From the NCBI GenBank assembly GCA_041741015.1, contig JBGSKX010000248.1, positions 64,509 through 128,508 of the forward strand: 64,000 nucleotides of DNA. Reading direction: 5' to 3'. The notes below the pieces were generated by a model. It did not search any database. It saw only the letters and a list, made by a program, of their open reading frames with translations, and was not told the DNA's origin. A program made the translations under genes and the position numbers. Below are positions 7,350 through 62,560 of this stretch, in pieces. This DNA comes from Pirellulales bacterium (lineage in GTDB: Bacteria; Planctomycetota; Planctomycetia; Pirellulales; PALSA-1355). Numbering within the stretch: position 1 is the stretch's first letter; each line of letters opens with the position of its first letter.

Positions 7350-8156
7350 CTACAGCGGCTCGTCCTTCACCGGATTCGTCAGGGTGCCGATACGCTCGAT
7401 CTCAATCGTTATCTCATCGCCGTCCTTCAGCAGGACCGGTGGATTGCGGGCCATGCCCACGCCGTGCGGCGTGCCCGTCAGAATCACGGTCCCCGGCAGC
7501 AATGTCGTACTGCCACTCAGGAACTCGATCAGCGTCGGCACGTCGAAGATCATGTCATTCGTGCTCCAATCCTGCATCACCTCGCCGTTCAGCACGGTTT
7601 TGATCTGCAACGCATTCGGATCGGGGATCTCATCCTTGGTCACAAGCGAGGGTCCCAGCGGACAGAACGTGTCGAACGTTTTGCCTCGACACCATTGGCT
7701 GCCGCCATACTGTTTTTGCCAATCGCGCGCGCTGACGTCATTGGCGCAGGTGTAACCCAGCACATATTCCAGCGCCTGCTCTCGCAACACATTCTTGCAA
7801 CGCTTGCCTATCACCACGGCCAACTCGCACTCGTAGTCCACCTCGTCACTCTTGAGATGCCGGGGCAAGTAGATCGGGTCACCGGGATTCTGAATTGCCC
7901 CGGGAGATTTCATGAATAGAACCGGCCATTTTGGAATTGGCGCATTGCCCTCCGCGGCATGTCGGCGGTAGTTGAGTCCGATGCACATGATCGCGGTCGG
8001 AGTTAGCGGAGCCAGGCGTTTCCGCACATCCGCTTTCCGATCGGTCACAAAGTAAGCACCGAACAGGTCCCCTTCGATTTCGAGCGCCGAGCCGTCTGGG
8101 CGTTCCGCGGCTAGCTTTGATTGTCCGGCAACGTCTTCGTAGCGGATGATTCTCAT
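7350..8156 (-). CDS. fumarylacetoacetate hydrolase (FAH) family protein
   Basis: FAH-family blocks [27 protein letters not shown]. Confidence 0.85.
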
Positions 8157-8416
8157 GACACCATTCAGGAGGGAGTGTGCGAGGAGTTTTACGTAAAGAC
8201 AGCGATTATCCTAGCTCGCCGCCTTGGCCGTCAATTGCCCCCGGGAGATGCACTAAAACACGCACAATCATCCCGTGCTGCAGGCCGCGGCAGGGACTCG
8301 TTGCTTCGCTAGTCACCGGAAGAAGGGAGACCTCGCGCAAATGCCAGTTGTTGACTTGCGATTCTTAGCTCAATTTCAGCTCAACATCGAGAAATTGAAT
8401 CCACCAAGTTTCGACA

Positions 8417-8445
8417 TTGCAGGGAGTATCATCTACTCGTAAAGT
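8417..8445 (+). promoter_or_regulatory. candidate promoter with an embedded inverted repeat (possible GntR operator)
   Basis: TTGCAG, 17-nt spacer, TAAAGT. The spacer holds GAGTA-N5-TACTC (8424..8438). Lies in an A/T-rich stretch 80 nt upstream of the GntR start. Confidence 0.2.
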
Positions 8446-8525
8446 GCAAGTATGGAACCCCCCGATAGCGTTCGAGGCGTCACGGGGAAAACGCAACGGG
8501 GCAGATTACGAACGGACGACGGACG

Positions 8526-9203
8526 ATGGCAGCGGCCCGGCGTACGAATTTGAGCGAACAGGTGGCCGGCTGGATCAAGCAGTTGATCCTCGACGAGGGG
8601 CTGAAGCCCGGCGATCGCCTGCCCACCGAGCAGGAGATGGCCGCGCGATTTGGCGTCAGCCGAGTCAGCATTCGGGAGGCCACCAAAGCTCTGAGCTTTC
8701 TGGGCATCATCCGTGCCGCACCCCGTCGCGGACTCAAAATCGGCGAAATCGACATGGCTCGGGTGACCGAGTACCTCGGCTTTCAATTCGCGCTGAGCGG
8801 TTACCCGCGACGACAATTGTTGCGCAGCCGGCTGGTGATCGAGGCGGGCGTCATTCCCTTCGTGGTGGAAGCGCTGACGGCGAGCCCCGAATTGGGCGAG
8901 CGACTCGCTGAACGGCTGGTCGAAGGGCGCGATGCCACCACGTACGAACAAAGGCTGGCCAACGACATCGCGTTTCACCGCACGATGCTGGAAACGAGCG
9001 GCATCGGTCCGCTGCTGGTGTTCGACGATCTGCTCCAGATTTTCTTCAGCCGCTTCGAAGCACATGTCAGCGAAGAGAATTGGCAGCTGACGATGAACCA
9101 TCACGCCAGGCTCGTGCAATTGCTTCAGGACGGAGACGTCGCAGGCGCTCAAGGCCTCATCGCCCAGCATCTCCAGGGGTACGAGCCAAAGGCCGACGAA
9201 TAG
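8526..9203 (+). CDS. GntR-family transcriptional regulator (FadR/FCD subfamily)
   Basis: Winged-HTH LPTEQEMAARFGVSRVSIREATKALSFLGII followed by an all-helical C-terminal domain. Confidence 0.85.
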   Translation: MAAARRTNLSEQVAGWIKQLILDEGLKPGDRLPTEQEMAARFGVSRVSIREATKALSFLGIIRAAPRRGLKIGEIDMARVTEYLGFQFALSGYPRRQLLRSRLVIEAGVIPFVVEALTASPELGERLAERLVEGRDATTYEQRLANDIAFHRTMLETSGIGPLLVFDDLLQIFFSRFEAHVSEENWQLTMNHHARLVQLLQDGDVAGAQGLIAQHLQGYEPKADE

Positions 9204-9287
9204 TGGCTGCCGCGAGCGCTTCGGCGGGGGTACAATGGCTGATTCCAGCCGCCCCCCTTCGCCAAGTTTTATTGCGTCGCGTGCCGC

Positions 9288-11192
9288 ATGAATGTCGAAA
9301 TCGACTCCATTGCGAGGCAGGTGCTTACGGCTTCGCGGTTTGTCGCCATGCCGCCGTACCGCGTGCGTGTGTTCCACACCTCGGGGCAAACCATCCGCTG
9401 GGAGGTTTTCCAGGGGCATTTGCTCGATCCGGCTGCTACACGCCGCACCGCAACGCTCGACTCCTGGCATGTGTTTCTCGACCGCGCAGAAACGCCGGCC
9501 GAGGCCCCGCTCATTACCGTGCATTGGAGTCGTCCGGCAGAATCCTTCTTCGTCACTCGACAGATTCTGACACATGCTTTCGAAGCGTACGAAGAATCGC
9601 CGGGCGTCATCGGCACGCGGCCGGCCGAGAAATGGATGCGCGAGCTGGTCGGCACGATTCCCACTCGCGAAACCGAGTCCGACACTCTCGGGGCGCAGCT
9701 TGCAAAGTTGATCTATCTGGCCGTCGTCGGGATCAGCCGATTGCCAATCACCTCGCTGGAGTCTCCACTTCCTTGCTTCTCGCTCGGTGAACTCAGTTAT
9801 TTCGCCGTCGAGTCGCGGGCGCTTCCCGCTGACGGGTCGCCTGCCAATCGCCTGTGCGGCCTGCTGACACTGTCGGATACGAAGCTCGCCAGCCGTGCAT
9901 TGGAGTTCGCACTTCGAGGGTTGCCGCCGCAGGATGACGACGCAATTGTTGCCGCTCTTGGCGAGCGCGGGCCAGAGCACGCGGATTCGCTTTTGCGGAA
10001 GGTCTTCAACCAGGCAGCGCTCGCACCTCACACCGGTTTTGCAGACCGACTGGTGGGGCTCGTCGGACGACTGGCGGATGAGCGCTGGTTTGGAGAGCAG
10101 CGAGCTCTTCGGCTTTTCTCGTACATGTTGCGGCAACTCTGCCGGCACCTCACGGCATTTGATCTCACGCTGTTTCACAACTTTGGCGCAAACTATCCCG
10201 ATGCACTGCTGCTGGACGCATTGCTCAAAGCGACGCTACGAGTTGTCGAGCGGCAACCAGAACGGACACTGCATCCGGAGCAGCGCCTGCTCAGACGGGC
10301 CGTTCGATCCGGCGCGATCCTGCGTAAGCACTACGAAGGACTTCGAGTTCCGGATACCCCAACGTCGATGGGCGAAAATACCCGCGTACTTCCTCCGCCG
10401 TTTACTCGAGTGCCCGAGGAGCAAATCACCGAGCATGGCAAGCGACGGCGCGTGCTGTTTGCCGACGATCCAACCGACGGACTCTTCAACCAGCGAACCC
10501 AGGTCGTTCTCGAGCAGAGTCTTAACGAGCTCAACGACGAGCGTGAGCTCCAGGAACTTGGCACGGCGTTGTTCCTGGATCGTCCGCTGGGAGCCCTCAA
10601 GCTGCCCGGCGAGGTGGATCGCACGCCGCTCGTTTCGTATGTGGCGTTCAGCCGGTCGGTAGCCGGCCGTCGACTCGCTACGGCCACGAGTGCCGGCTGG
10701 TTCGATGACAATCGTCAGAGTGCGCTCCGTTCCCAACTTGCGACGCTCGCTCCCCCCGGTCTGCCTGCCGCGGAATTGCAGTGTGTCGAACGGCCGGGCG
10801 TCGTCTCGCTGGCAGACGCGAATAAAGCGGCCGCCGACTTCGTGATCTTGCGAAGCACGCGTGGCTCGCTCGCCGAGCTTCTAAACCTGTACAACTGGCA
10901 ACCACTGGCCGCACGGTTTCCGGCAATCCACGCGTGGCTGCATGAATGTTCGGACGTGCTGTTCATCCAACAGCGCCATGCACAACTCGGCCACCCGCCC
11001 CGATTCGAGTTTTTTCGCGGTGCCGAACTGCAGTTTGTACTGAGCACTCGGTCATCGCCAAGTACAATGGGCGAGTATCGCGAGTTTGGCGGCATCGAGT
11101 TGCTCACGCCGCTTGTGTTGTGCCAGATTCGCGAGGAGACGGGGCGGCTAAACGAGCTTAGCGAGCCCGACATTCTGATCCTGGCTAGATAG
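9288..11192 (+). CDS. hypothetical protein, 634 aa, no recognisable domain
   Basis: Long ORF with balanced composition. Sits 84 nt after the GntR gene and 14 nt before the sulfatase gene. The overlapping minus-strand ORFs are R/G/P-rich shadows. Confidence 0.6.
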   Translation: MNVEIDSIARQVLTASRFVAMPPYRVRVFHTSGQTIRWEVFQGHLLDPAATRRTATLDSWHVFLDRAETPAEAPLITVHWSRPAESFFVTRQILTHAFEAYEESPGVIGTRPAEKWMRELVGTIPTRETESDTLGAQLAKLIYLAVVGISRLPITSLESPLPCFSLGELSYFAVESRALPADGSPANRLCGLLTLSDTKLASRALEFALRGLPPQDDDAIVAALGERGPEHADSLLRKVFNQAALAPHTGFADRLVGLVGRLADERWFGEQRALRLFSYMLRQLCRHLTAFDLTLFHNFGANYPDALLLDALLKATLRVVERQPERTLHPEQRLLRRAVRSGAILRKHYEGLRVPDTPTSMGENTRVLPPPFTRVPEEQITEHGKRRRVLFADDPTDGLFNQRTQVVLEQSLNELNDERELQELGTALFLDRPLGALKLPGEVDRTPLVSYVAFSRSVAGRRLATATSAGWFDDNRQSALRSQLATLAPPGLPAAELQCVERPGVVSLADANKAAADFVILRSTRGSLAELLNLYNWQPLAARFPAIHAWLHECSDVLFIQQRHAQLGHPPRFEFFRGAELQFVLSTRSSPSTMGEYREFGGIELLTPLVLCQIREETGRLNELSEPDILILAR

Positions 11193-51782: not shown

Positions 51783-52027
51783 GATCAATCCCCTTATACG
51801 CAGTCGTTGGTGGGTCCATTCGCCGTACCACCCCTGACGCAACGACCGTGCCGAACTGTAAAATTGGCCGTTGCGACCGGCAAAACGTCCGTATCGTGCA
51901 CCCTTTGGGCCGGGAACTGGCGCGCTGGACGCCAATCAGCCATCGCCCAGACGGGATGGCCCAGCCTACAATGCCCGGCTTGCATTGGTCGCAAGAGGAA
52001 GCTCGCCGGAGAAGTCGATTAAGAAAT

Positions 52028-52804
52028 ATGAAACCCGAAGATGGCTTAGCACTGATCCGCGAAACGATTGCCCCCGTGCGCACGGAGTTGCTTGAGCATC
52101 CCGTTTACCGGCAGATCACGAACCTGGACGCGCTGCGCGTGTTCATGCAGCACCACGTGTTCGCGGTCTGGGATTTCATGTCGCTGCTCAAATCGCTGCA
52201 GAAGTCACTGACAACGGTCCGCGTGCCGTGGTTGCCGCCGGCCGATCGGCTGGCCTGCCGGCTGGTGAACGAGATCGTTCTCGGCGAGGAATGCGACTCC
52301 GACGGTCGCGGCGGCTTTGCCAGCCATTTTGAGCTCTACCTGCGGGCGATGCGCGAGTGCGACGCGCCAACGGTCTGGATCGACGGCTTCGTCGATCGAC
52401 TGGCCGGGGCCAGCGATGTCGACTCAGCCCTCATTGGCTGCGAAGCGCCGCCGACGGTCACCGCCTTTGTCAGGCACACGTTTGAGATCATCAACCGCGA
52501 CAGTCTGCCGGTCCTGGCCGCCGTGTTCACGTTTGGGCGCGAGGACCTGCTGCCGGATGTGTTCGCCCGAATTGTGCACGAGCTGAACGAGATCTCCGGT
52601 GGCAATCTGGCGGAGTTTATCTACTACCTGGAGCGTCACATCGAACTCGATGGCGGCGAGCACGGCCCACTTGCGCACAAGCTGGTGGCCAATCTGTGCG
52701 GCGACGACGTCAAGAGTTGGCAGGCCGCAGCCGAAGCCGCGCGGGCGACGCTCATCGCTCGCAGAAATCTTTGGGACGGCATCAGCCGCGCGATCACGAC
52801 GTGA
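52028..52804 (+). CDS. DUF3050 (heme-oxygenase-like fold) protein
   Basis: LEHPVYRQITNLDALRVFMQHHVFAVWDFMSLLKSLQ block typical of DUF3050. ATG 52028 gives the usual 258 aa or so. Confidence 0.75.
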   Translation: MKPEDGLALIRETIAPVRTELLEHPVYRQITNLDALRVFMQHHVFAVWDFMSLLKSLQKSLTTVRVPWLPPADRLACRLVNEIVLGEECDSDGRGGFASHFELYLRAMRECDAPTVWIDGFVDRLAGASDVDSALIGCEAPPTVTAFVRHTFEIINRDSLPVLAAVFTFGREDLLPDVFARIVHELNEISGGNLAEFIYYLERHIELDGGEHGPLAHKLVANLCGDDVKSWQAAAEAARATLIARRNLWDGISRAITT

Positions 52805-54140
52805 TCGTGTCGGTGGTGGCGCGAAGCGTCTCGGCGGAAGCGGGCTCGGCCGATTCCTTGCGGGCCACGATGGGCTCGGACTCGAGCCGCTCGATCCGCG
52901 CGGGTCGCAAGAGGAACGAGAGTCCGATCGCCACGAGACCGAACGACATGGCGACGTATCCCGCCACGTTGTAGTGCGTGAGCGGTCCGCCGCGGTAGGC
53001 TTCGCCCACGATCGCGCCGGAGATCAGCGGGCCGGTTCCGGTCGCCAGGTGCGAGACGGCCGTGGTCAGGTTTGTGAACGCACCGCGCAGCTCGGGATCG
53101 GCCGAGGCGAGCATCATGGCCTGTGCGGGCACAACCCGGCCGCTGGCCAGGACCATGAATCCTCCCATGGCGGCGGCCGCCCCCCACAGCCCGACGTCCG
53201 GCAGGTTGGTCAGCACATAGGTCATGACGACGGCCCCGCAGGCGGTGAACAAGAACACGGGGCGCGGCCCGAAGCGATCGGTCAACAGGCCGAATAGATT
53301 CATCGTGATCAGGGCGGCAAAGCCTGCGATGGCGTAAATGATGGGCAAGTCGCTCGCCGTGCGGCCGCAGTTCGACTGCAAGTAAGGCGCGATGTAAGGT
53401 GCGATGATGAACGTGCCCAGCACCATCGCGAGCATGAACGCGAACGAGATCAGGTGGTTTGGCTGGCGCACGACCGCGGCGAACTGCGCGATGGGATTGG
53501 CTCGCACGGCGGTGCGATGCCCCGTCAACGATGGCAATCGCCAGAGCGTAATCAACCAGACCGGTACTGCCAGCGCTGCGATCGCCAGAAAGGTCGCGGC
53601 GAAGTCGTCGAAGATGTCCGCGATCGTCAGCCCCGCTGGCAGACCGATCGTCGAAGCAAGTGCAAAGGTTGACGTGACCGCGCCAATCGCCTTGCCGCGT
53701 TGTTCGGGTCGGAACACGTCCGCGATGATTGCCATGATGCTGGCCGCGGTCACGCCGCCGAACAATCCGGCGAGCGCCCGGGCCACTACCAGGCTGAGAT
53801 AGCTATTGGCCAGACCACAATAGAGCGTGGCAACGATGAAGCCGGCAAAGGCGATGAGCAACACGCGTTTGCGGTCGAAGCGGTCGACCACGGCCGAGGC
53901 GGCAATGCCGGCGAACATGGCGGCGATGCCATAGGCCGATACGACGAAGCCGAACTGCTGGGGATTGATCGCGAGCTGCCGGCGGAGCTGATCGCCCAGC
54001 GGCATGATGATCACGAAGTCGAGAATGTGCGTGAAGTTGATGGCCGCGAGGATTGCGACCAGAGACCACTCGGCCGCGCCGAAGCGGCGACTGGCGGACG
54101 GCCCAGGGGCGGGATCAGATTCAATCTCTGTAGGAGGCAT
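52794..54140 (-). CDS. MFS transporter
   Basis: 12 predicted TM segments. MFS loop motif VVDRFDRKRVLL between TM2 and TM3. Confidence 0.8.
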   Translation of the reverse strand: MPPTEIESDPAPGPSASRRFGAAEWSLVAILAAINFTHILDFVIIMPLGDQLRRQLAINPQQFGFVVSAYGIAAMFAGIAASAVVDRFDRKRVLLIAFAGFIVATLYCGLANSYLSLVVARALAGLFGGVTAASIMAIIADVFRPEQRGKAIGAVTSTFALASTIGLPAGLTIADIFDDFAATFLAIAALAVPVWLITLWRLPSLTGHRTAVRANPIAQFAAVVRQPNHLISFAFMLAMVLGTFIIAPYIAPYLQSNCGRTASDLPIIYAIAGFAALITMNLFGLLTDRFGPRPVFLFTACGAVVMTYVLTNLPDVGLWGAAAAMGGFMVLASGRVVPAQAMMLASADPELRGAFTNLTTAVSHLATGTGPLISGAIVGEAYRGGPLTHYNVAGYVAMSFGLVAIGLSFLLRPARIERLESEPIVARKESAEPASAETLRATTDTITS

Positions 54141-54450
54141 CGTGCCCTTTACGTGGCGGAGTTCAGAACACCATCAACGCTGACAATCCACGTGGCGGTC
54201 AAGTTCGGTCGCCTTCCGCAGCGAAGAATAATACCGGTGCATTCTAGGCACCTCGCTCTCGACAGACAGGGCGCTTTGCACGAGCCAGCAAGCGGTTAAC
54301 GAAATCGAAACAAGAACGGGACAAGAATAGCCTTGTCGGAGGCAAGCAGCGGTGGCGAATGACCGTTTGGGCACGCGATTGTAATCAAGTTTCCCAGACT
54401 TTAGACTAGACCGGGCCGCTTGCCCCCATCCGAAGAAAGAGAACCACTCC

Positions 54451-55212
54451 GTGAAGCTGGTGCTCGTCACGTTGCTGCTATTGCTCGTACCCGGGAAGAC
54501 CTTCGCGGTCGGGCTGGTGGTCGTCTCCGAGTTCAGCACGCTCAAAATCTCGTTTCAAGAGTGGGGCGGCCCGGGCAGAACGGTCAGTTCCCCGCAATTT
54601 CTTGGGAGCGATACAACGCACCTTGGGGGGACGATCTTCGCGAACATCACGAGCGGCTCGCTCAACTCCATAGAGCTACTTCCCTCGACGCTCAGTATTC
54701 TGAACGAACTTGCACCAATGCAACCGCTGCCCGGCGGCGCGCCCGGGCAGGCGATAGCGCAATTTGGCTGGAACATCGATTACGGCGTGCCGTTCAACGG
54801 CGCTGTAGCGGCGCGCAATCTCGAACTGGGGATCTCTGGCGGTCCGCTGGTTAGCGCTACCAATTCATTCTCCACCAACTCGATTCAATTCGACCTGTTC
54901 GGCGGAGAGTTCGACTACGATCTGCTTAGCTACGGTTCGCCGCTCGTAGGCCAATTGCCCGTTCTCGAGACCGGTTTCAACAGCAGTGGTGATGCCACGC
55001 TGCAATCTTCCTTCGGCGGCTTCTACACACTCACGATTCCGATCAACTTCACGTTTCTAGTCGATGGTGTGCCGCTGATCGCCGTCGTTACCGGTGAAAT
55101 CGTCGCAGCTGACATCCCCGAACCGAGTACCTGGGTGCTGGGGGCATTCGGTCTCTTAGCGCTGGTGGCAGGCGGCTATCGCGAAGTCGCCAGGCGCAGC
55201 ACCGCGGGGTAA
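54451..55212 (+). CDS. PEP-CTERM sorting-domain protein
   Basis: Signal peptide MKLVLVTLLLLLVPGKTFA. C-terminal IPEPSTWVLGAFGLLALVAGGYREVARR (PEP motif, TM helix, basic tail). Confidence 0.85.
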   Translation: MKLVLVTLLLLLVPGKTFAVGLVVVSEFSTLKISFQEWGGPGRTVSSPQFLGSDTTHLGGTIFANITSGSLNSIELLPSTLSILNELAPMQPLPGGAPGQAIAQFGWNIDYGVPFNGAVAARNLELGISGGPLVSATNSFSTNSIQFDLFGGEFDYDLLSYGSPLVGQLPVLETGFNSSGDATLQSSFGGFYTLTIPINFTFLVDGVPLIAVVTGEIVAADIPEPSTWVLGAFGLLALVAGGYREVARRSTAG

Positions 55213-55217
55213 CCCGT

Positions 55218-56087
55218 TTACAGCCACGGCCGAATCCACGACCAGATGCGGTTCTTGAGCTTCACAGCCGGCGGGTTCTCGAGCGGCACGGGCTCCTCGG
55301 CCACGTGCGCATTGTTGGCCGAGAGGACGCCGACGTCCACTTCGCCGTCGGTGTAGTACCGATCGCCGCCGCCGTTGCGGCCATAGAGCGTCGGCCCCAC
55401 GCCCGTCACTTGCGAACGACTGGTGAGTTGTCCCGCGTCGGCGAGGTCGTTCATCATCCGGTCGCGCTCGGCGTCGACGTCGGGCGCGATGTGATGCGTG
55501 ATCTGACCCGTGTAATGACTGAGACCCACGCTGTGATCGAACGTGGCAGCGCCCAGCCAGACCGGCCGGCCGTCTTCCTCGTGACCCTCCCAGAGCCAGA
55601 ACCGCACGTGCTGCCGCTTCTTGGGACTATTGCCGTCGGGCTTCTCGAACGCCAGGTCCTGCTTGCGGCCGAACACGAACAGATTGCTGACCGGCGCGTG
55701 ATCGTACTGTTTGCCGCGAAGCACGGTCTCGGCAATCTTGAGCGAGCTTGAGAGCGTGATCGGATCGGCCGGATACCAGCCCGCGGAGAGAAACGCGCGG
55801 ATGACCTCTTCCTTGGATCCCACCAGCGTCACGTTCAGCGGATCGCCCGGTATGTGGTCGACGGTCTCGGTCGTGCGCGGCGCGACGGCCAACTCGGGAT
55901 GGTGTTCGTAGTGCTTCCAAAGCGTGGGCAGCAGCAGGTAAGCGATGAACAGCCACAGCACGATTGACCAGATAATGAGGTGAATCATGCGGCGAAGCTT
56001 ACCATATCGGCGAATCGACGGCGCGGGCGCAGAAGCCGGCGGCTGCGTGCCATCAGTGCTCTTCTCAGGCTTGGGGTCGGCGGGCAT
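55218..56087 (-). CDS. single-pass membrane protein with an LssY_C domain
   Basis: N-terminal TM helix IHLIIWSIVLWLFIAYLLLPTLW. LNVTLVGSKEEVIRAFLSAGWYPADPITL, FVFGRKQDLAFEKP and KRQHVRFWLW blocks resemble LssY_C. Confidence 0.65.
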   Translation of the reverse strand: MPADPKPEKSTDGTQPPASAPAPSIRRYGKLRRMIHLIIWSIVLWLFIAYLLLPTLWKHYEHHPELAVAPRTTETVDHIPGDPLNVTLVGSKEEVIRAFLSAGWYPADPITLSSSLKIAETVLRGKQYDHAPVSNLFVFGRKQDLAFEKPDGNSPKKRQHVRFWLWEGHEEDGRPVWLGAATFDHSVGLSHYTGQITHHIAPDVDAERDRMMNDLADAGQLTSRSQVTGVGPTLYGRNGGGDRYYTDGEVDVGVLSANNAHVAEEPVPLENPPAVKLKNRIWSWIRPWL

Positions 56088-57093
56088 AGGCGTTTTTTAC
56101 CAGGCGGTGAATGAAGCCATCATACTCGATTCCGCCAGCCTCGAGCGCCTTGGCAAAACCGGCCGTGGGGCTGATGTCGGGATTGCCGTTCACTTCGAGC
56201 ACGAACACTCGGCCCTGAACGTCGACCCGCATGTCGACGCGGGCATAATCGCGGCAGCCCGTGGCATGAAATGCTGCCAGAGCCACGCGGCGTATCTCGG
56301 CTGCCAGGTCGGGCTCGACATCGGCCGGACAGCGCACTGCCGATTGGACGCACTCGTCGCTGTCGGCGGCCCACTTGGCATCATAGGTTACGATTCGCCG
56401 ATCCGGCGGAAAGGCTTCACCGAACTCGATCTCGGCCAGCGGCAGCGTCTGGGCCTCGGGCAGCGCGAGCACGCTGACGTTGAACTCGCGGCCGGCGATG
56501 AAGCGTTCGACCAGCGCCGGACCGTAGCGCGTGTGTACCTGCTGTAGTTGTTCGTTGAGTCCCGTTTCGGTTGTCACAACGCTCGCCAGCGAGATGCCCA
56601 GGCTGGCGTCTTCGTGCGCTGGCTTGACGATCAGCGGTCCCTGTTCGAGCAGCACGGCGAACTGCGCGCGATCGATCTGGCAGTTCGGCGAAGTGAGTAA
56701 GAATTCGGGAGTCGGTATGTCCGCCCCGGTGAGCAGCCACTTGGTGCGCGGTTTATGACGCACGAGATCCAGGCATTCGGCCGGCGAACCGGTCATGGCC
56801 AGCCCGCGCAGCTCGACGAGCGCGGCGACTGCCGCTTCGCCGCGCCCGACGCCGCCAAAGCCTTCGAACAGGTTGACCACGACGTCGAACGGCTCGAGGT
56901 CGAGAATCGAGGCGATGGCTTCGTCCACGGTCGGTCCCAGGCCGAGTGCAAAGCAACGATGGATATGGGCGGCGAGCGATGTGTTAACCGCTTCAACGGA
57001 TTCCAGCACGCCGGCTTCGGAGGCCGCGTCGGGATGATCGCGCGGCAGCGTCGGCTCGTTGTAGAGAATGAGGACCTTCACGGATGCCCTCAT
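56065..57093 (-). CDS. D-alanine--D-alanine ligase family ATP-grasp enzyme (paralogue 1)
   Basis: VKVLILYNEP N-terminus, KPAHEDASLGIS, EVNGNPD. ATG 57093 chosen because the 57108 start lies inside the hairpin repeat. Confidence 0.75.
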   Translation of the reverse strand: MRASVKVLILYNEPTLPRDHPDAASEAGVLESVEAVNTSLAAHIHRCFALGLGPTVDEAIASILDLEPFDVVVNLFEGFGGVGRGEAAVAALVELRGLAMTGSPAECLDLVRHKPRTKWLLTGADIPTPEFLLTSPNCQIDRAQFAVLLEQGPLIVKPAHEDASLGISLASVVTTETGLNEQLQQVHTRYGPALVERFIAGREFNVSVLALPEAQTLPLAEIEFGEAFPPDRRIVTYDAKWAADSDECVQSAVRCPADVEPDLAAEIRRVALAAFHATGCRDYARVDMRVDVQGRVFVLEVNGNPDISPTAGFAKALEAGGIEYDGFIHRLVKNAYARRPQA

Positions 57094-57107
57094 GCGGTTC
57101 GCGGGCA

Positions 57108-57139
57108 CTTTCCAGGGGGAAGGTATTCCCCTGGCTTTA
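57108..57139 (+). repeat. CTTTCC..GGCTTTA hairpin repeat copy
   Basis: CTTTCCAGGGGGAAGGTATTCCCCTGGCTTTA. Its last 3 nt are the complement of the TAA stop of the upstream minus-strand gene. Confidence 0.6.
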
Positions 57140-58207
57140 CATGCATGTGATTTGCGCGGTCACGGCGGCGTCACTTGGCGAATATATGAGGCCGACGCGG
57201 TCGATTGCCGCCGCGAGGATGCGCGCGACCAGCTCGCGATGCTCGATGCCCAGCGATCGACTGAGCAGCACCAGATCACCAGACGTGGGCGACAACCCCG
57301 GCAGCGGGTTTGTTTCCAGGAAGTAAGGTACTCCATCGCGGAGGCGGAAATCAAATCTCGCGACGTCGCGGCATCCCAGGGCTCGCCAGGCGGTCAGCGT
57401 CGCGTCGAGCACGGCCTGGGAGTCGTGGGGTGTGAGCGCCGCAGGGCACTCGTAGCGCACCTGCCGCTGCCAATCGCGCTTCACTTCCAGGCTGTAGACG
57501 AACGGCTGCGTGCTCTGCTCTCGTGGCAATACGCGCATGATGCCCAGCACTTGTGGCGGATCATTGCCGACAACACCGACCGTCAGCTCGTCGCCGAGGA
57601 TGAACTCTTCGACCAGGACCGGCTGCTGGTAGGCCTGGTGCAATTGCTGGAGGGCGGCACGAAGGGACTCGAGGTTATACAACACGCTGCTGTTGAGGAT
57701 GCCTTTGCTGGAACCTTCGCAGGCCGGTTTGACAAAGACTGGAAAGCGTAGTGACACGGCCTCACGTTCGATGCTCGCCGGATCACCTTCGTAAACGAAC
57801 CAGCGCGGCGTGGCAACGCCCACGGCGGCAACCAACTGCTTGGCAATCGGCTTGTCGAGCGTCACGGCCAGGGTGAGCGGGTCACTGCCCGTGTAGGGAA
57901 TGTCCAGCATCTCGAGCACGGCTGGCACGCGGGCTTCGCGCGTTCGTCCGGCGCCGTGCCCCTCGGCAAAGTTCCACACGAGGTCGGGCCGCGGACCGGA
58001 AAGCAGCCGCTGGAGCAGCGGTTCGCCGTAACCCAGCAGTTCGACCTCGTGGCCGAGCGACTGGAGCGCGGCCGCGATGGCCGCGATCGTCTCGGGCGAA
58101 TCGAACTCCTCGTCGAGATCGTCGCCCGGCAGCGGCAGGACTCCCGAAACACTTGAGCCCGCGGGGACGTCGGCACGGCGAACGTTGAAGGTCAAACCGA
58201 TTCTCAA
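57137..58207 (-). CDS. D-alanine--D-alanine ligase family ATP-grasp enzyme (paralogue 2)
   Basis: MRIGLTFNV N-terminus, VKPACEGSSKGI, FLETNPLPGL. Confidence 0.75.
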   Translation of the reverse strand: MRIGLTFNVRRADVPAGSSVSGVLPLPGDDLDEEFDSPETIAAIAAALQSLGHEVELLGYGEPLLQRLLSGPRPDLVWNFAEGHGAGRTREARVPAVLEMLDIPYTGSDPLTLAVTLDKPIAKQLVAAVGVATPRWFVYEGDPASIEREAVSLRFPVFVKPACEGSSKGILNSSVLYNLESLRAALQQLHQAYQQPVLVEEFILGDELTVGVVGNDPPQVLGIMRVLPREQSTQPFVYSLEVKRDWQRQVRYECPAALTPHDSQAVLDATLTAWRALGCRDVARFDFRLRDGVPYFLETNPLPGLSPTSGDLVLLSRSLGIEHRELVARILAAAIDRVGLIYSPSDAAVTAQITCM

Positions 58208-58237
58208 GCCGTGGCTCCTGAATACTGTTTTACCGCA

Positions 58238-59677
58238 TTACTTCGCGCGTGAGCGCGACCAGCCGTCGTGTTCAGCGGAAGGCGTCTCTTCGGCCTGATA
58301 GCCGGAAAGCTGAATGACGTCGGGACCTGCTGCTTCGACCTGCTGAGCGTCGGCGTGCAGCGCTTCGGCATGATCGGCGCGCCGTTGGAAACGCGGCGTG
58401 CCTTCAGGCACCAGTGCGGTCCGCATGCCGCTGAGCAGCGAGCTGACACCCAGCGTTGGGTAACCGGCCGCCAGGCCATCAGGCTTGTCTTCCGGCGCAT
58501 AGCGGAAGAGCATGCCTTCGTAGTTTCGCAGCACCACGGCGTTGTCCGAAGCTGAAACAAGATAGTTCGGCATCAGCGGAATCTTGCCGGCGCCGTGCAT
58601 GCCATCGACGACATAGGTCGGCACAGCCAGCCCGGAGACGTGCCCGCGGAGACCTTCGATGATCTCGAGCCCCTTCCAAACCGAGGTGCGGAAGTGGCCG
58701 GCGCCGGTGACCGGGTCGCAGTGGAACAGGTAGTACGGCCGCACCTTGATCCGCAGCAGCCCGCGGACGAGCTGTCGCATCGTGGTGACCGAATCGTTCA
58801 CGCCTTTGAGCAGCACGGCGTGATTGCTGACGGGCATGCCCGCATTCACCAGGTTGCGCACGGCCTGGGCCGTGGCGGGGGTGATCTCGCGAGGGTGATT
58901 GAAGTGCGTTTGGATCCAGATCTTGCCGGCGCTGTGCAACAGCGCCACGAGATCCAGGTCGAACAGCCGCTGCGGCAGCGTGACCGGCACGCGCGTGCCA
59001 ATCCGGATGACGTCGACGTGGTCGATCGCGGCCAGGTTGGTGATGAACCACCGCAGCCGGTTGGGTGGCAGCGACAACGGATCGCCACCACTCATGACGA
59101 CATCACGAATTTCGCGGTGCTCGCGGACATAGGCGATCATCCGCTCGTCGTTGTGGCTGGGGGCGTCCCAACCGTCGCGGTCCATCGTCACGCGCTTCCG
59201 CGTGCAAAACCGGCAGTACATCGAGCAGACGTGGGTCGTGACCATCAGCACGCGGTCGGGATAGCGATGCGTGAGGCCCGGCACAGGTGAGTCTTTGTCT
59301 TCTTCCAGAGGATCTTCGAGCTCAACGCCGGCCGTACTGCTGGTTTCGAGCAGCGAGGGGAGCGACTGGAGCGCGATCGGATCGGCCGGATCGAGCGTGT
59401 TGATCAGCGAGAAGTAGTACGGCGGAATCGCCAGCTTGTACTTCTGTTCGAGCTCTTCGAGGGCGGCATGCTCCTCGAGGCTGAACGCGTAGAACTCCGC
59501 GAGCTGCGAAGTCGTGCGGATGGCGTTTTGCATCTGCCATCGCCAGTCGTCCCATTTGTCGTCGGCAACGTCATTCCATTTGGGGTGCCGACGACTGGTA
59601 CCTGGAGGCTCCTCAAAGTCGTCCTGCTGGACTCCATCCCGGGGGGCCGCCACCAGTGCGGCATCAGCGCGGTTCAT
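58238..59677 (-). CDS. kamA: lysine 2,3-aminomutase family radical-SAM/PLP enzyme
   Basis: WDDWRWQMQN, SPVPGLTHRYPDRVL, CSMYCRFCTRKR (59204..59227 encodes CSMYCRFC), and PLP-lysine context VVDGMHGAGK. ATG 59677 chosen over the 59749 ORF start. Confidence 0.85.
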   Translation of the reverse strand: MNRADAALVAAPRDGVQQDDFEEPPGTSRRHPKWNDVADDKWDDWRWQMQNAIRTTSQLAEFYAFSLEEHAALEELEQKYKLAIPPYYFSLINTLDPADPIALQSLPSLLETSSTAGVELEDPLEEDKDSPVPGLTHRYPDRVLMVTTHVCSMYCRFCTRKRVTMDRDGWDAPSHNDERMIAYVREHREIRDVVMSGGDPLSLPPNRLRWFITNLAAIDHVDVIRIGTRVPVTLPQRLFDLDLVALLHSAGKIWIQTHFNHPREITPATAQAVRNLVNAGMPVSNHAVLLKGVNDSVTTMRQLVRGLLRIKVRPYYLFHCDPVTGAGHFRTSVWKGLEIIEGLRGHVSGLAVPTYVVDGMHGAGKIPLMPNYLVSASDNAVVLRNYEGMLFRYAPEDKPDGLAAGYPTLGVSSLLSGMRTALVPEGTPRFQRRADHAEALHADAQQVEAAGPDVIQLSGYQAEETPSAEHDGWSRSRAK

Positions 59678-60068
59678 CTGCGGTGAATCCCTCCACAAAG
59701 TAAGCCGTCCTACAGCTTTGGCGACTGCGGCAACACCCGCGGCTCGCAAGCAGATTCGCGTGCTTATACCAGTTGCCAGGCGGCCTCACAAGCGAAGCAA
59801 CCCTTGAATATCAAAGGATTTAGTTCGCACGCAAAGTATCCGCGGGAGTGCCCCTTGGCAGGTCAATTCAATGCGCACCTTGCCAGCACTTCCGCGGGTC
59901 CACTATGATCGGCGGGAGTCCACGGCTGGCAGCGCGACAGGAAGTCGCCTCGCGACCAGGTTTCAGCCCTCCCTCCGGTGACTCTGAGCCGATCGATTGA
60001 GCGCATCGATCCGGCGCGGCTGTCTCTCCGTAATCCACGATCACGCCTCGCCCCGCATAAGGTTCCGC

Positions 60069-61478
60069 ATGAACGCATCGGCCTCGCCCACTAGCCGGCT
60101 TACCGTTACTCAGTGGTTGATTGTCTCGCTGGCGGCGATCGGGTTTGCGTTCGATATCTACGAACTGCTGATGATGCAGTTCATCATCAAGGACCTGATC
60201 GTCGAGCTCACCGGCTATGCACCGGGAAGCGCCGGATTCAATAAGTGGGGCGCGGTCCTGTTTTACGTTCCGGCTTTGGCTGGCGGCGTGTTTGGGCTCT
60301 ACGGCGGCTACCTGACGGACCGTCTTGGCCGGCGCCGCGTGCTCACCTGGAGCATCCTGATTTACGCGTTCAGCGCGTTCGCGGCGGGGTTCTCAACCTC
60401 GATCGAAATGCTCCTCGTGCTCCGCTGCTTGACGTTTGTCGGCGTGTGTGTTGAGTTCGTGGCTGCCGTGGCCTGGCTCGCAGAGTTGTTTCCCGATCCG
60501 CATCGCCGCGAGACCGTACTGGGCTATACCCAGGCGTTCAGCTCGCTCGGCGGTTTCATGGTCGCGGGCGCCTACTTCCTGGCGGCCCGCTATGCCGAGT
60601 CGCTACCCACAATTCAGCTCCCCGGCTTCCTCAGCTTCATGGGTGAGATCCAGAACGGCAATGCCGCCTGGCGATATACCTTGATGTCGGGGCTGATCCC
60701 GGCCCTGCCGCTATTGATCATTCGGCCGTTTCTCCCCGAGTCGCCAATCTGGGCTCGCAAGCACGCCGCGGGCGAGTTGCAACGGCCGAGCTTCCGCGAG
60801 CTATTCAGCCCGCAATTTCGGCGGACCACGATTGTGAGCACGATCGTGTTTGCGTGCGCCTATGGAGCGGCGTTTGGAGCGATCCAGCAAATTCGCCAGA
60901 TCGTGCCGGGCGTACCGGACGTGAAGGCCGAGCTGGCAGAACTCCCAGTGCCCAAGCAAAAGCAGCATGAGGCTGAAACCGCTGCGTTCATTGGCGAGAT
61001 CCAGGAGCTCGGCGGTCTTACGGGGCGCATCTTGCTCGCGATCCTGGCCGTGCGGATTGTCAGCCGTCGCTCACTGCTTAGAGTTTTCCAGGTACCAGGG
61101 CTGATCCTGGTGCCGCTGATCTTCGCGTTCGCGCCGAGCCAGGGGCTCAACGCCCTGACGATCGGTGCATTCGTCGCCGGACTGTTTACGGTCGGACAGT
61201 TCAGCTTCCTGGGGAACTATCTGCCGACGGTGTATCCGGTACACTTGCGCGGCACGGGCGAAGGCTTTGCCGCCAACATTGGTGGCCGCATGATCGGCAC
61301 CTCATTCGCCGCGGTAACGCTGCTACTCAGTGGCATGATGCCGGGCGAATCCGCCCCGATGCAAGTTGCCAACGCAGCGGCCGTCGTCGCGCTGTTCGTA
61401 TTCACGGTCGGCGTTATCGCGTCGTTCTTCCTGCCGGAGCCGCTACCGGAAGAAGTCGATTTCGGCGCTAATCGTTAG
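60069..61478 (+). CDS. MFS transporter
   Basis: 12 TM segments. MFS motif GGYLTDRLGRRRVL. ATG 60069 chosen. Its stop overlaps the convergent stop of the next gene (TTAG). Confidence 0.8.
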   Translation: MNASASPTSRLTVTQWLIVSLAAIGFAFDIYELLMMQFIIKDLIVELTGYAPGSAGFNKWGAVLFYVPALAGGVFGLYGGYLTDRLGRRRVLTWSILIYAFSAFAAGFSTSIEMLLVLRCLTFVGVCVEFVAAVAWLAELFPDPHRRETVLGYTQAFSSLGGFMVAGAYFLAARYAESLPTIQLPGFLSFMGEIQNGNAAWRYTLMSGLIPALPLLIIRPFLPESPIWARKHAAGELQRPSFRELFSPQFRRTTIVSTIVFACAYGAAFGAIQQIRQIVPGVPDVKAELAELPVPKQKQHEAETAAFIGEIQELGGLTGRILLAILAVRIVSRRSLLRVFQVPGLILVPLIFAFAPSQGLNALTIGAFVAGLFTVGQFSFLGNYLPTVYPVHLRGTGEGFAANIGGRMIGTSFAAVTLLLSGMMPGESAPMQVANAAAVVALFVFTVGVIASFFLPEPLPEEVDFGANR

Positions 61479-62560
61479 ATTAACAGCCCTCGGGCATCAA
61501 TCGGCAGTTCGACGAGCGTGCCATCCTCATCGCGCAGCCAGACCGCGGTTTGCAAGTTGATGCACGGGCACACGTGGTTCGGGATCACGGTCACCCGTTC
61601 GCCGAGCTTGGGCACGCGGCTGCACTTGCGGACGTCGACCTGGCCGTGCTCCTCGGTGAGTTTGTTAATCACCGCATCCGGATATTCGACGATGTAGCCG
61701 TGGCCGCTGTCGGGCGCAGGTCCGCAGCGATCGCTGGTGAACGTCTTGGTGCCGGCGTCGAGCACAACTTGCCCAGGCACAGCGGTGCTGACGACCGTGC
61801 AGATGATCGTCGCGGCGCAATCGTCCAGCGTACAGAATCCGCCGTGGACACCGTTCATGTCGTTATAGATGTACGTGCCAGGGCGAATCTCGGTGAGGTC
61901 GGCCACCAGGTGCGACTGAAACGCCGTCGGTGTTGAGCCGCCGGAGATTACGCGTGCCTCCAGCCCGTGCTCGGCCCACAGCTCGAGCGCATCGCCCAGC
62001 TTGCGTGAAACCTCGGCGAGGGCCGGCTCCTGCTCCGCCGGAGGACATTGGATGTGCCCCGGATAAAATAGCAGGCCATCGAGCCGCAGCCCCGGCGAGC
62101 GGTCGACCATGGCGGCGAGCTTCAGTGCCTCGCCCGGTGTTTGCAGGCCGGTGCGCCCCATGCCGACATCGAGATCGACCAGGATGCCGATCGTGGTCTT
62201 GGCCCGATTGGCCGCGGCGGCGATCTGCTTGGCGCCCTCAATCGAATCGACAGCCACGCGGAGCGTAATGTGCTTTGCCAGATGCGCCAACCGTGCAGTG
62301 CGGGCCGGATCGATTGCCGGATAGGCAACCAGCACATCCTGACAGACCTCGGACATCACCTCGGCTTCGCCCACCTTGGCCACGGTCAGGCCGACCGCTC
62401 CTGCGCCAAGCTGCAGATCGGCAAGCTGGAGCGATTTGTGGGTTTTGGTATGTGGCCGCAGGTCGAGGTCGTGGCTGTCGGCGTAGTCCGCCATCCGATT
62501 GAGATTCTGGACGACCGTCGTTCCGTCGATAACGAGTGCCGGCGTGGCGGGAGGATCCAT
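61475..62560 (-). CDS. fold-type III PLP enzyme, D-threonine aldolase/D-serine dehydratase (DSD1) family
   Basis: N-terminal ALVIDGTTVVQNL...RPHTKTHK (PLP-lysine motif of the alanine-racemase-N-like DSD1/D-TA family) and a C-terminal beta domain. Confidence 0.75.
   Translation of the reverse strand: MDPPATPALVIDGTTVVQNLNRMADYADSHDLDLRPHTKTHKSLQLADLQLGAGAVGLTVAKVGEAEVMSEVCQDVLVAYPAIDPARTARLAHLAKHITLRVAVDSIEGAKQIAAAANRAKTTIGILVDLDVGMGRTGLQTPGEALKLAAMVDRSPGLRLDGLLFYPGHIQCPPAEQEPALAEVSRKLGDALELWAEHGLEARVISGGSTPTAFQSHLVADLTEIRPGTYIYNDMNGVHGGFCTLDDCAATIICTVVSTAVPGQVVLDAGTKTFTSDRCGPAPDSGHGYIVEYPDAVINKLTEEHGQVDVRKCSRVPKLGERVTVIPNHVCPCINLQTAVWLRDEDGTLVELPIDARGLLI

Follow-up and report, generated by a model that had tools for sequence, protein, structure and literature searches.

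A conserved kamA and ATP-grasp ligase module in a Pirellulales bacterium and at least six phyla, a candidate pathway to small beta-lysine amides

In a 64,000-nucleotide stretch of Pirellulales DNA (hereafter the window), a gene for a KamA-family aminomutase is followed by the genes of two divergent ATP-grasp ligases, here called G1 and G2, and this kamA-G1-G2 arrangement is a real, uncharacterised three-gene module present in at least six phyla. The breadth of its distribution suggests that the module probably makes a small beta-lysine compound. We propose that lysine is converted to beta-lysine and that two ATP-dependent amide ligations then yield a small peptide or conjugate of beta-lysine, which most lineages would acetylate, and we give this reading a probability of about 0.55.

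Results

Layout of the locus

The operon consists of four co-directional minus-strand ORFs encoding KamA, G1, G2, and LssY_C (Table 1). The longest ORF for KamA spans 58238..59749, and a start at the ATG at 59677 yields a 479 aa protein. G2 may start at a GTG at 57108 (ORF 56065..57108) or at an ATG at 57093, the latter being the better fit to the N-termini of its orthologues ('M..VLILYNEP'). KamA and G1 are separated by 30 nt, G1 and G2 by 43 nt (28 nt with the GTG start), and G2 and LssY_C overlap by 23 nt; the ORF listing of the window thus agrees with the four-gene layout and spacings given in the original prediction, which had been made from the sequence alone. Given the existence of shorter LssY_C homologues (256 aa), the true start of LssY_C could be the internal Met34, in which case the overlap would vanish. 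The region between kamA and the divergent MFS gene, presumed to hold the operon promoter, retrieved no element in an Rfam search, and its sole promoter-like match, a sigma-70-like site at 59880..59909, lies on the plus strand and points at the MFS gene.

Table 1. Features of the operon and its surroundings in the window
Feature	Position	Strand	Basis
KamA, KamA-family radical-SAM/PLP lysine 2,3-aminomutase (predicted), AblA-like clade	58238..59677	-	Pfam, NCBIfam, PDB 2A5H
G1, Ddl-family ATP-grasp amide ligase (predicted), 356 aa	57137..58207	-	Pfam Dala_Dala_lig_C 3e-33
G2, second Ddl-family ATP-grasp ligase, more divergent than G1 (predicted)	56065..57093	-	Pfam Dala_Dala_lig_C 3e-29
LssY_C, single-pass membrane protein, 289 aa	55218..56087	-	Pfam LssY_C 1e-67
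Intergenic region between kamA and the divergent MFS gene; presumed operon promoter region	59678..60068	.	Position
MFS transporter, divergent from kamA	60069..61478	+	Pfam MFS_1
Fold-type III PLP enzyme, D-Ser dehydratase/D-Thr aldolase type	61475..62560	-	Pfam Ala_racemase_N + D-ser_dehydrat
Second MFS transporter (MFS2), weak MxcK-like exporter match	52794..54140	-	NCBIfam MxcK 261 bits, cut-off 525

KamA as a lysine-type aminomutase

KamA matches the Pfam families LAM_C (3.8e-26) and Radical_SAM, and its HMMER alignment to the LAM of C. subterminale (PDB 2A5H; E 1e-121) finds Cys125, Cys129, and Cys132 (Fe-S), Arg134, Asp293, Asp330, and Lys337 identical in both proteins. The [4Fe-4S]/SAM motif CSMYCRFC (CxxxCxxC), confirmed at 59204..59227, aligns to the three cysteines C125/C129/C132 of 2A5H and is kept in 68/68 aligned sequences, that of the window included, as is the carboxylate-binding R134; the PLP-binding lysine K337 is kept in 67 of the 68, with one gap. 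VVDGMHGAGK is also present as predicted. D293 and D330 of 2A5H align to the HCD and VVDG motifs, respectively, and both are retained in 67/67 orthologues. These two aspartates hold the epsilon-ammonium group of lysine and are replaced in glutamate 2,3-aminomutase. The by-eye alignment behind the original proposal of lysine rather than glutamate as substrate was right, and the proposal is supported.

Among NCBIfam models, KamA passes the KamA subfamily TIGR00238 (320.5 bits, cut-off 199.2) and scores best against the AblA equivalog, at 465.6 bits below its cut-off of 525.4. The Glu, Arg, and EpmB aminomutase models are missed with wider margins (EpmB: 231.4 bits, cut-off 369.3). An N-terminal extension carries an 'EEPPG' motif, conserved in the acidic form 'EEPP[GS]'. 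By its sequence, KamA is a lysine-type aminomutase, predicted to convert L-lysine to beta-lysine.

Two divergent Ddl-family ligases

G1 and G2 are paralogous, with 30% identity, and in the PDB and NCBIfam only Ddl/Van ligases match them strongly. The G1 profile retrieved the Ddl fold from the PDB down to 1e-37, with an N-terminal domain that barely aligns to Ddl. Both ligases score below the cut-off of 243 of the NCBIfam Ddl subfamily PRK01372 (G1 164.2 bits, G2 123.1 bits), and both miss all Ddl equivalog models widely. Equivalents of the ATP/Mg residues K97, K144, E180, E187, K215, R255, D257, E270, and N272 are found in both, and the set is kept in 83/83 members of the G1 family and in at least 70 of 76 of the G2 family; the numbering follows what we take to be the DdlB reference sequence, which agrees with a separate alignment in this analysis. 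G1 retains equivalents of E15 and S150, that is, a Ddl-like donor-amine site, and its residue at position 216 (Y in DdlB) is read as W or R according to the alignment used. Most G2 members carry E15->A/S, S150->A, and G276->D. The D-Ala1 site triad E15-S150-Y216 is therefore incomplete in G1 and in G2. HMMER and MAFFT give ambiguous alignments around the omega loop and at the acceptor site S281/L282. Judged by these residues, G1 and G2 appear to have intact catalytic sites and differ from ordinary Ddl enzymes, and the original assignment of two paralogous genes of the D-Ala-D-Ala ligase family holds.

Conservation of kamA-G1-G2

The three genes are co-directional and keep their order in members of Planctomycetota, Chloroflexota, Acidobacteriota, and Armatimonadia, in Desulfovibrio, and at one further locus (L089). 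The layout of the window is that of 67 loci from four phyla, plus Desulfovibrio and L089. G2 directly follows G1 in 75/82 loci, and KamA is intact in 67/82; 6 further loci have a frameshifted kamA or lose the gene where the contig ends. A locus from a Woeseia MAG (L087) also has the module layout, but no intact G2 gene was called after its G1. In nine planctomycete loci G1 is found, with or without G2, and KamA is not adjacent, so the ligases may not strictly need beta-lysine. Relatives of G1 are present in at least 557 species genomes, many Dehalococcoidales MAGs among them; the genomes come mainly from soil, groundwater, and lake habitats, and a cultured Desulfovibrio carries the module. All-vs-all clustering of the ORFs of the loci yielded no other gene family common to multiple phyla. 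Conservation of kamA with two ATP-grasp genes, posed originally as a question for neighbourhood comparison, thus extends far beyond close relatives. A full-text literature search found no paper describing the module or a pathway of such composition, in agreement with the earlier statement that none had been characterised.

Acetyltransferase and deacetylase partners

In 46/82 loci the gene after G2 encodes a GNAT acetyltransferase. GNAT fusions also occur, with G2 in L020 and in L030, and with G1 in L026. The closest solved relative of the module GNAT is PDB 2R7H. GNATs of related loci match generic GNAT models only, RimI being the best, weak match in NCBIfam, and none matches AblB (TIGR03827). 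A fusion of GNAT and an HDAC-type deacetylase adjoins the module in 9 Dehalococcoidales loci, in D. mangrovi, and in L089; the Woeseia locus has an adjacent deacetylase-domain gene with no GNAT match recorded. A tblastn search with six module GNAT sequences found no GNAT homologue in the window, and the nearest Pirellulales relatives are also without a downstream GNAT of the 2R7H type. We would like to note that the GNAT and GNAT-HDAC partners, conserved elsewhere and both missing from the window, were missed by the original prediction, as were the occurrence of the module in cultured Desulfovibrio and the PylB/PylC precedent discussed below. Its statement that AblB, EpmA, fermentation, and NRPS partner genes are absent at the locus was correct; per ORF listing and Pfam, no aaRS-like (EpmA-type) ORF lies within 52-64 kb of the window.

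Flanking genes

The LssY_C domain is a clear one (PF14067; 227.7 bits, gathering cut-off 25) from a family for which we know of no function. In the AlphaFold model residues 26-57 form a TM helix, and the model retrieved no fold match from the PDB. The gene follows G2 in only 2/82 loci, the two closest relatives (L003 and L004), and homologues at 56-62% identity occupy unrelated gene contexts. LssY_C is a lineage-specific addition outside the conserved module.

The divergent MFS gene adjoins kamA only in L002-L009 and L014, and outside the close Pirellulales relatives there are different transporters or none near the module; its link to the module is weak. In L003, MFS2 is the next gene after LssY_C and shares the strand of the operon, giving the layout KamA-G1-G2-LssY_C-MFS2. 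The fold-type III PLP enzyme scores 171 bits against BhcC, far below the cut-off of 690 (NCBIfam), and was found by tblastn only in L002-L005 and L007-L009. Its gene is convergent with the MFS gene, neither is co-transcribed with the operon, and the enzyme is probably an unrelated neighbour.

The original reading of the locus therefore stands in part. A lysine-type KamA, two ligases, and a widely distributed module remain; LssY_C (by its contexts) and the MFS transporter and PLP enzyme (whose synteny is confined to the nearest Pirellulales clade) drop out as members of the pathway, and no evidence links the pathway to a D-amino acid or to an envelope conjugate.

Discussion

Proposed pathway and known relatives

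Gene content, catalytic residues, conservation, and fusions are observations, from which we infer substrates, step order, product, and role. We envisage a three-gene pathway in the cytoplasm, in which KamA would convert L-lysine to beta-lysine by a radical-SAM/PLP 2,3-amino shift. In G1 the Ddl residues that bind the acyl donor's free amino group are preserved, and we propose that this enzyme would turn the carboxylate of an amino acid, beta-lysine being the likeliest, into an acyl phosphate and couple it to an amine. Since G2 is without these residues, it may carry out the second ATP-dependent ligation on a product whose donor end has lost its free amine. Such a pathway would end in a small beta-lysine compound made without the ribosome, either a di- or tripeptide or an amide conjugate. 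The GNAT encoded by the operon in most lineages and the GNAT-HDAC protein that often accompanies it probably add an acetyl cap to an amino group and remove it again, for example at the epsilon-amine of beta-lysine, and the cap could render the product neutral or serve as a protect/deprotect step. With no GNAT gene nearby, the Pirellulales lineage of the window may make a cationic, un-acetylated form, possibly exported by the flanking MFS proteins.

In mechanism, the nearest precedent is offered by the PylB/PylC pair from pyrrolysine biosynthesis, in which a radical-SAM lysine mutase is followed by a Ddl-like ATP-grasp ligase that forms an isopeptide with the N-epsilon of a second lysine. There too lysine is isomerised by a radical-SAM enzyme, and the carboxylate of the isomer is activated by an ATP-grasp enzyme for amide formation. 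In contrast, PylB is not a KamA/PLP aminomutase, and the module has two ligases and no PylD dehydrogenase; PylC was not retrieved from the PDB by the G1 profile, so homology is not close. The AblA/AblB system, which makes N-epsilon-acetyl-beta-lysine in methanogens and some bacteria, has in common with the module an AblA-like KamA and, in most lineages, a co-encoded GNAT. The module differs in having two ATP-grasp ligases between aminomutase and GNAT, a KamA under the AblA equivalog cut-off, a GNAT not of the AblB type, and, in the window, no GNAT at all. Ngg, a GNAT plus an ATP-grasp enzyme, makes the osmolyte NAGGN. The coupling of GNAT to an ATP-grasp peptide ligase in this Ngg/AsnO system (N-acetylglutaminylglutamine amide) recalls the fusions in L020, L030, and L026, which are not in the window; unlike it, the module has no amidotransferase, and beta-lysine rather than glutamine is the proposed supplied substrate. 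The Ngg ATP-grasp subfamily also differs from that of G1 and G2. In the EpmB/EpmA system of EF-P, a KamA-family aminomutase likewise supplies beta-lysine for an amide bond, but the module KamA falls below the EpmB cut-off, no gene for the aaRS-like EpmA is present, and the ligases are ATP-grasp enzymes. With Ddl ligases, finally, G1 and G2 share fold, family (Dala_Dala_lig_C), and the full ATP/Mg catalytic set, and differ in the N-terminal domain, in the D-Ala1 site missing from G2, and in gene context, which in every lineage is kamA with or without GNAT and HDAC genes rather than cell-wall genes.

Alternative explanations

Strong matches to Ddl/Van enzymes could mean that G1 and G2 are ordinary peptidoglycan D-Ala-D-Ala ligases, chance neighbours of a lysine aminomutase, with no pathway at all. 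This is scarcely credible given scores far under every Ddl cut-off, the poorly alignable N-terminal domain, the lost triad and G276->D of G2, the strict gene order over at least six phyla together with the GNAT fusions, and the absence of mur or fts genes near the ligases in the ORF listing of the window. Cell-wall synthesis is also the classical job of Ddl relatives, and LssY_C overlaps G2 in the window and follows it in the two closest relatives, so beta-lysine, perhaps with a D-amino acid from the PLP enzyme, might be placed onto an envelope component with the help of LssY_C. We consider this very improbable, since LssY_C, MFS, and PLP enzyme have no link to the module outside close Pirellulales relatives, LssY_C homologues sit in unrelated neighbourhoods, the PLP gene is convergent with the MFS gene and apart from the operon, and the family of the PLP enzyme is catabolic for D-amino acids.

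More deserving of attention, though unlikely, is that G1 and G2 put beta-lysine or chains of it on a protein carboxylate or lysine, as in RimK, TTL, or EF-P beta-lysylation, with GNAT and HDAC in regulation. G2 and the G1 orthologue of L075 do have weak TTL-family matches, the GNAT best matches RimI, a protein N-acetyltransferase, HDAC-fold enzymes often deacetylate lysines of proteins, and the 'EEPP[GS]' motif of KamA could be a docking or acceptor site. Nevertheless, the ligases fall in the Ddl small-molecule branch, and ORF clustering gave no candidate substrate protein gene conserved in the operon. EF-P modification in Planctomycetota and Chloroflexota is, moreover, already attributed to EpmA/EpmB (PMC12856214), and KamA is below the EpmB cut-off. 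A secreted specialised metabolite, that is, a cationic beta-lysine peptide with an antibiotic or competitive function, resembling a streptothricin side chain in minimal form, is the alternative to which we give slightly more credence, albeit as an improbable one. GNAT would then give self-protection by acetylation, the HDAC-type enzyme would reactivate the product, and MFS would export it. Streptothricin resistance enzymes are GNATs acting on beta-lysine, an acetylate/deacetylate pair follows known pro-drug logic, the module has MFS genes on its flanks in the window, the MxcK-like MFS follows on the operon strand in L003, and L075 and L089 have further MFS genes close to the module. Against this, a compact operon of 3-5 genes that is spread over many phyla and at least 557 species genomes is unusually broad for an antibiotic cluster, the transporters are not conserved alongside the module, and the typical tailoring and regulatory genes of biosynthetic clusters are absent.

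Role and significance

For the product of the proposed two-ligase pathway, we prefer a role as a compatible solute or polyamine-like cytoplasmic metabolite. Several points weigh against this best explanation: the substrate assignments rest on few aligned residues, the GNAT is not AblB-like and is absent from the 64-kb window, and the flanking MFS exporters of the window lineage fit a secreted product equally well. The habitats, together with searches that detected no salt-related riboswitch or regulator, do not particularly favour an osmolyte. The enzyme kinds are already known, and what is new is their combination. Tentatively, we suggest that kamA-G1-G2 and its usual GNAT and GNAT-deacetylase partners may constitute an undescribed, widespread pathway to a new class of small beta-lysine amides, used in at least six phyla as a tunable solute or polycation whose charge would be switched by acetylation and deacetylation. 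If so, its products could be, for example, isopeptides of the beta-lysyl-lysine type or short oligomers built from N-epsilon-acetyl-beta-lysine.

A conserved aminomutase and double-ligase operon

The lysine aminomutase gene kamA and two paralogous ATP-grasp genes of the Ddl family lying 3' of it (here G1 and G2) form a tight operon that is kept over at least six phyla. A genome scan with the G1 alignment found a G1 relative in at least 557 species-representative genomes, the best 80 of which belong to the Planctomycetota (Pirellulales, Gemmatales, and Isosphaerales), Acidobacteriota, Chloroflexota (mostly Dehalococcoidia), and Armatimonadia. Conservation of kamA with two ATP-grasp genes beyond close relatives was the test set with the original prediction, and the module is indeed present in all of these lineages. 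For a set of 82 loci, made up of the best 80 G1 loci and two others, the window's proteins were placed by tblastn. G2 lies directly 3' of G1 in 75 loci and KamA directly 5' of G1 in 67, while KamA is frameshifted or missing at a contig end in six more. Nine planctomycete loci (L011, L012, L013, L027, L029, L032, L035, L037, and L040) truly lack an adjacent KamA, having G1 and usually G2 with no KamA within 7 kb; in these genomes, either the gene is located elsewhere or the ligases can accept another substrate. All-against-all clustering of all ORFs in the loci yielded no other gene family common to several phyla.

In the window, ORF calls agree with the four co-directional minus-strand genes originally described, the gene spacings were reproduced from the ORF coordinates (30 nt, then 43 nt or, with the GTG start of G2, 28 nt, then a 23-nt overlap), and each family call is backed by Pfam. 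The ATG start of G2 gives an N-terminus of the form M..VLILYNEP, as in its orthologues. No riboswitch was found 5' of kamA by Rfam scans of the window region and ten related loci, the promoter scan returned no minus-strand promoter for the operon, and the terminator scan gave nothing above shuffled background.

Coordinates of the operon, its neighbors in the window, and the GNAT-HDAC fusion genes at related loci
Feature	Position	Strand	Pfam
KamA	58238..59677 from ATG; longest ORF from TTG at 59749	minus	LAM_C + Radical_SAM
G1	57137..58207	minus	Dala_Dala_lig_C
G2	56065..57108 (GTG) or 57093 (ATG)	minus	Dala_Dala_lig_C
LssY_C	55218..56087	minus	LssY_C, E 1e-67
MFS	60069..61478		MFS_1
Fold-III PLP enzyme	61475..62560		Ala_racemase_N + D-ser_dehydrat
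GNAT-HDAC fusion	L085:8629-10386, L089:5268-7004, L079:4558-6300		

The aminomutase

KamA matches the Clostridium subterminale lysine 2,3-aminomutase (PDB 2A5H) with an E-value of 1e-121 using HMMER, and in that alignment Cys125/129/132, Arg134, Asp293, Asp330, and Lys337 of 2A5H are identical in the window's protein; these seven positions are conserved across 67 orthologues from related loci. The top NCBIfam model is the AblA lysine 2,3-aminomutase (465.6 bits against a cut-off of 525.4), lower scores, further below the respective cut-offs, were obtained with the glutamate, arginine, and EpmB models, and the general KamA subfamily model is passed. These scores and conserved residues together place KamA, as judged from sequence, in a separate clade of lysine-type 2,3-aminomutases that is neither bona fide AblA nor EpmB. 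Unlike the C. subterminale enzyme, the module's KamA has an N-terminal extension (residues 1-50 are encoded by 59530..59677 in the window) with an acidic-proline motif, EEPP[GS][KTS], about 10 residues upstream of the canonical LAM start. Compared across the window, L002-L082, L085, and L086, the EEPP[GS] motif is found in Planctomycetota and Chloroflexota, reads EPPS in Desulfovibrio, and has degenerate forms in Acidobacteriota and Armatimonadia. The extension might be where the ligases dock.

The two ligases

G1 and G2 are 30% identical to one another, and each is about 25% identical to solved Ddl enzymes, as read off printed alignments. The G1 family profile finds strong matches in the PDB only to Ddl and Van ligases (E 1e-37), the next-best match being an L-amino-acid ligase (6e-8); PylC and RimK/LysX-type ligases were not recovered from the PDB by this profile. 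The Ddl-type fold of both proteins is not in doubt. Nevertheless, G1 and G2 score 164 and 123 bits against an NCBIfam Ddl threshold of 243, and the label "D-alanine-D-alanine ligase" that routine annotation gives to such genes is probably wrong.

Both families were aligned to E. coli DdlB, the sequence used for it agreeing with a separately printed alignment. The residues for ATP, Mg, and the transition state (K97, K144, E180, E187, K215, R255, D257, E270, and N272) are kept in both families, so both ligases are expected to be active. In Ddl enzymes, the ammonium group of the amino acid serving as acyl donor is bound by Glu15 and Ser150. The equivalents of both are kept in G1, while G2 has Ala or Ser at position 15 and Ala at 150; in addition, Asp replaces the oxyanion-loop Gly276 in 70 of 76 G2 members. 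We draw no inference from the acceptor-site positions S281/L282 and Y216, at which the HMMER and MAFFT alignments disagree. The simplest reading of these substitutions would be two ligations in sequence, with G1 using a donor with a free amine and G2 a donor lacking one, such as the G1 product or an N-acylated compound.

Acetyltransferase and deacetylase partners

A GNAT acetyltransferase gene lies directly 3' of G2 in 46 of the 82 loci, a count that includes the Armatimonadia locus, where the GNAT is fused to G1 (L026:2632-4185, a continuous ORF). GNAT-bearing loci comprise all of the Chloroflexota and Acidobacteriota, the Armatimonadia locus, and a few of the Planctomycetota, two of which have continuous G2-GNAT fusion ORFs (L020:8188-9846 and L030:8037-9587). 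By Rosetta-stone reasoning, these fusions tie acetylation to the ligation steps. The module GNATs match only generic GNAT models, with RimI matching weakly; as an AblB-like candidate the GNAT was ruled out, the AblB model not being matched among those scanned. It is clearly homologous (E 1e-33) to PDB 2R7H, a structural-genomics protein titled "putative D-alanine N-acetyltransferase". The 2R7H gene (L086:8001-8531) is directly 3' of two genes annotated as D-alanine--D-alanine ligases, which are the module's G1 and G2; the 2R7H label is therefore probably misleading, and we suspect that it was derived from the neighboring "Ddl" annotations. Using six module GNAT sequences, tblastn found no homologue in the 64-kb window, and in the window's sub-clade the GNAT gene has been either lost or relocated.

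Further module loci were reached by searching with the 2R7H sequence. The gene order in Desulfovibrio mangrovi is sigma-54 activator, KamA, G1, G2, GNAT, and GNAT-HDAC fusion; a locus 99% identical to 2R7H has activator, KamA, G1, G2, and GNAT; and L089 has KamA, G1, G2, GNAT-HDAC fusion, and GNAT. Identity between the window and Desulfovibrio is 45% for KamA, 39% for G1, and 31-33% for G2, with G1/G2 orthology maintained. The GNAT-HDAC protein is about 580 aa long, with a weak GNAT-like domain at its N-terminus and a domain of the histone-deacetylase fold at its C-terminus. It adjoins the module in D. mangrovi, L089, and nine loci of the Dehalococcoidales; in these nine it follows the GNAT. 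The L079 copy, the sole copy scanned, matched no NCBIfam model. A Woeseia MAG (L087) has KamA, G1, a 498-aa deacetylase-domain gene with no GNAT match on record, and GNAT; no intact G2 was called between G1 and the deacetylase gene.

Local neighbors of the operon

LssY_C, originally proposed as a member of the module, is found 3' of G2 in L003 and L004 alone, the two closest relatives, and its homologues in Singulisphaera and another planctomycete (56-62% identity) have unrelated gene surroundings. Its AlphaFold model (pLDDT 79.8) shows one transmembrane helix, at the N-terminal end, and matched no fold in the PDB (best E 0.67), and no relevant study of LssY was found in the open full-text literature. 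Invariant residues are H59, H62, D82, D108, R141, D144, E148, R158, H160, R162, D184, H191, H198, H199, D205, D242, and E249, and the protein could be an uncharacterized membrane-anchored metal-dependent enzyme. The MFS and fold-III PLP genes, which had been suggested as pathway parts, are found beside kamA in no lineage but the nearest Pirellulales clade (L002-L009; L014 has the MFS gene only). The PLP gene converges on the MFS gene and does not belong to the operon's transcription unit. In other lineages, the MFS position is occupied by an APC permease, another MFS, a regulator of the MarR type, or a sigma-54 activator. With LssY_C, MFS, and PLP genes thus placed next to the module only in close relatives, nothing ties a D-amino acid or envelope step to the pathway.

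Comparison with L002 indicates how the window's local layout arose: a VWA/DUF4129/DUF58/MoxR block abuts G2 in L002, whereas in the window this block (45.6-51.5 kb) is separated from G2 by DUF3050, a second MFS, a PEP-CTERM ORF, and LssY_C. In L003 (9075-11509), an MxcK-like MFS gene directly follows LssY_C on the operon strand; in the window (52794..55212), the two are separated by a plus-strand 253-aa ORF (54451..55212) with an N-terminal hydrophobic stretch that by eye resembles a signal peptide and a weak PEP-CTERM motif. The DUF3050 gene (51848..52804; haem-oxygenase-like "iron-containing redox enzyme", Pfam E 1.5e-91) lies on the strand opposite to the MxcK-like MFS gene and overlaps its 3' end. 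In the Pirellulales MAG locus L004, about 2.1 kb of extra DNA (8069-10239), which may be an insertion element, lies between the otherwise adjacent G1 and G2.

Proposed pathway and alternatives

In the pathway that we propose, KamA would convert lysine to beta-lysine, G1 would activate the carboxylate of an amino acid (beta-lysine in the simplest case) and couple it to an amine, and G2 would form a second amide bond. The GNAT would add an acetyl group and the HDAC-type enzyme would take it off. HDAC-fold enzymes typically act on an acetamide ending an aliphatic chain, and N-epsilon-acetyl-beta-lysine presents just such a group. One of two possible purposes of the acetylation would be to protect one amine during regiospecific ligation. 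In the window's lineage, where the GNAT is missing from the neighborhood and two MFS genes lie near the operon, the product may be cationic and exported. We give a probability of roughly 0.55 to the product being a small beta-lysine amide, formed non-ribosomally in two ligations, and hold any specific physiological role with much less confidence.

The product might instead be a secreted, antibiotic-like compound with the GNAT providing self-protection, which we regard as unlikely. Slightly less probable still is that the enzymes modify a protein: EF-P beta-lysylation in the phyla concerned is already credited to EpmA/EpmB (PMC12856214), and this together with the lack of any substrate gene conserved with the module weakens the idea. 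An envelope conjugate, as in the original prediction, appears improbable given the distribution of LssY_C, and we give least credence of all to ordinary Ddl genes that happen to sit beside an unrelated aminomutase. Thus, the beta-lysine and two-ligase core of the original prediction stands, while LssY_C, the MFS transporter, and the D-amino-acid enzyme drop out of it.

Relation to known systems and significance

The small beta-lysine amide reading can be set beside several known systems. In pyrrolysine biosynthesis, PylB, a radical-SAM lysine isomerase, is followed by PylC, an ATP-grasp isopeptide ligase; this pair is closest to the module in working logic, and since PylC is not recovered by the G1 profile, the likeness is one of logic only. 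Similar to the module, Ngg combines a GNAT with an ATP-grasp enzyme, yielding an acetylated dipeptide osmolyte, and AblA/AblB has the first enzyme type in common. The module is a member of none of these systems, and the defining features of AblB, EpmA, PylB/PylC, and Ddl were tested for and are absent from it. No description of a kamA and ATP-grasp module was found in the open full-text literature, in line with the original remark that no characterized pathway of this composition was known to its author. The module is a real, widely conserved, and apparently uncharacterized pathway assembled from enzyme families already known.

A transposon library of D. alaskensis G20 has been archived (PMC4045070). 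The presence of the module in cultured Desulfovibrio with a mutant library allows direct tests, which the uncultured planctomycete of the window does not. Recognition of the module would also correct routine annotation, in which its genes are probably mislabeled as cell-wall genes. Few fates of beta-lysine are known, and a compact operon feeding it into two dedicated amide ligases suggests an unrecognized common metabolite, perhaps an osmolyte, a stand-in for polyamines, or a peptide rich in nitrogen, in the soil, groundwater, and sediment lineages from which the genomes with G1 relatives come.
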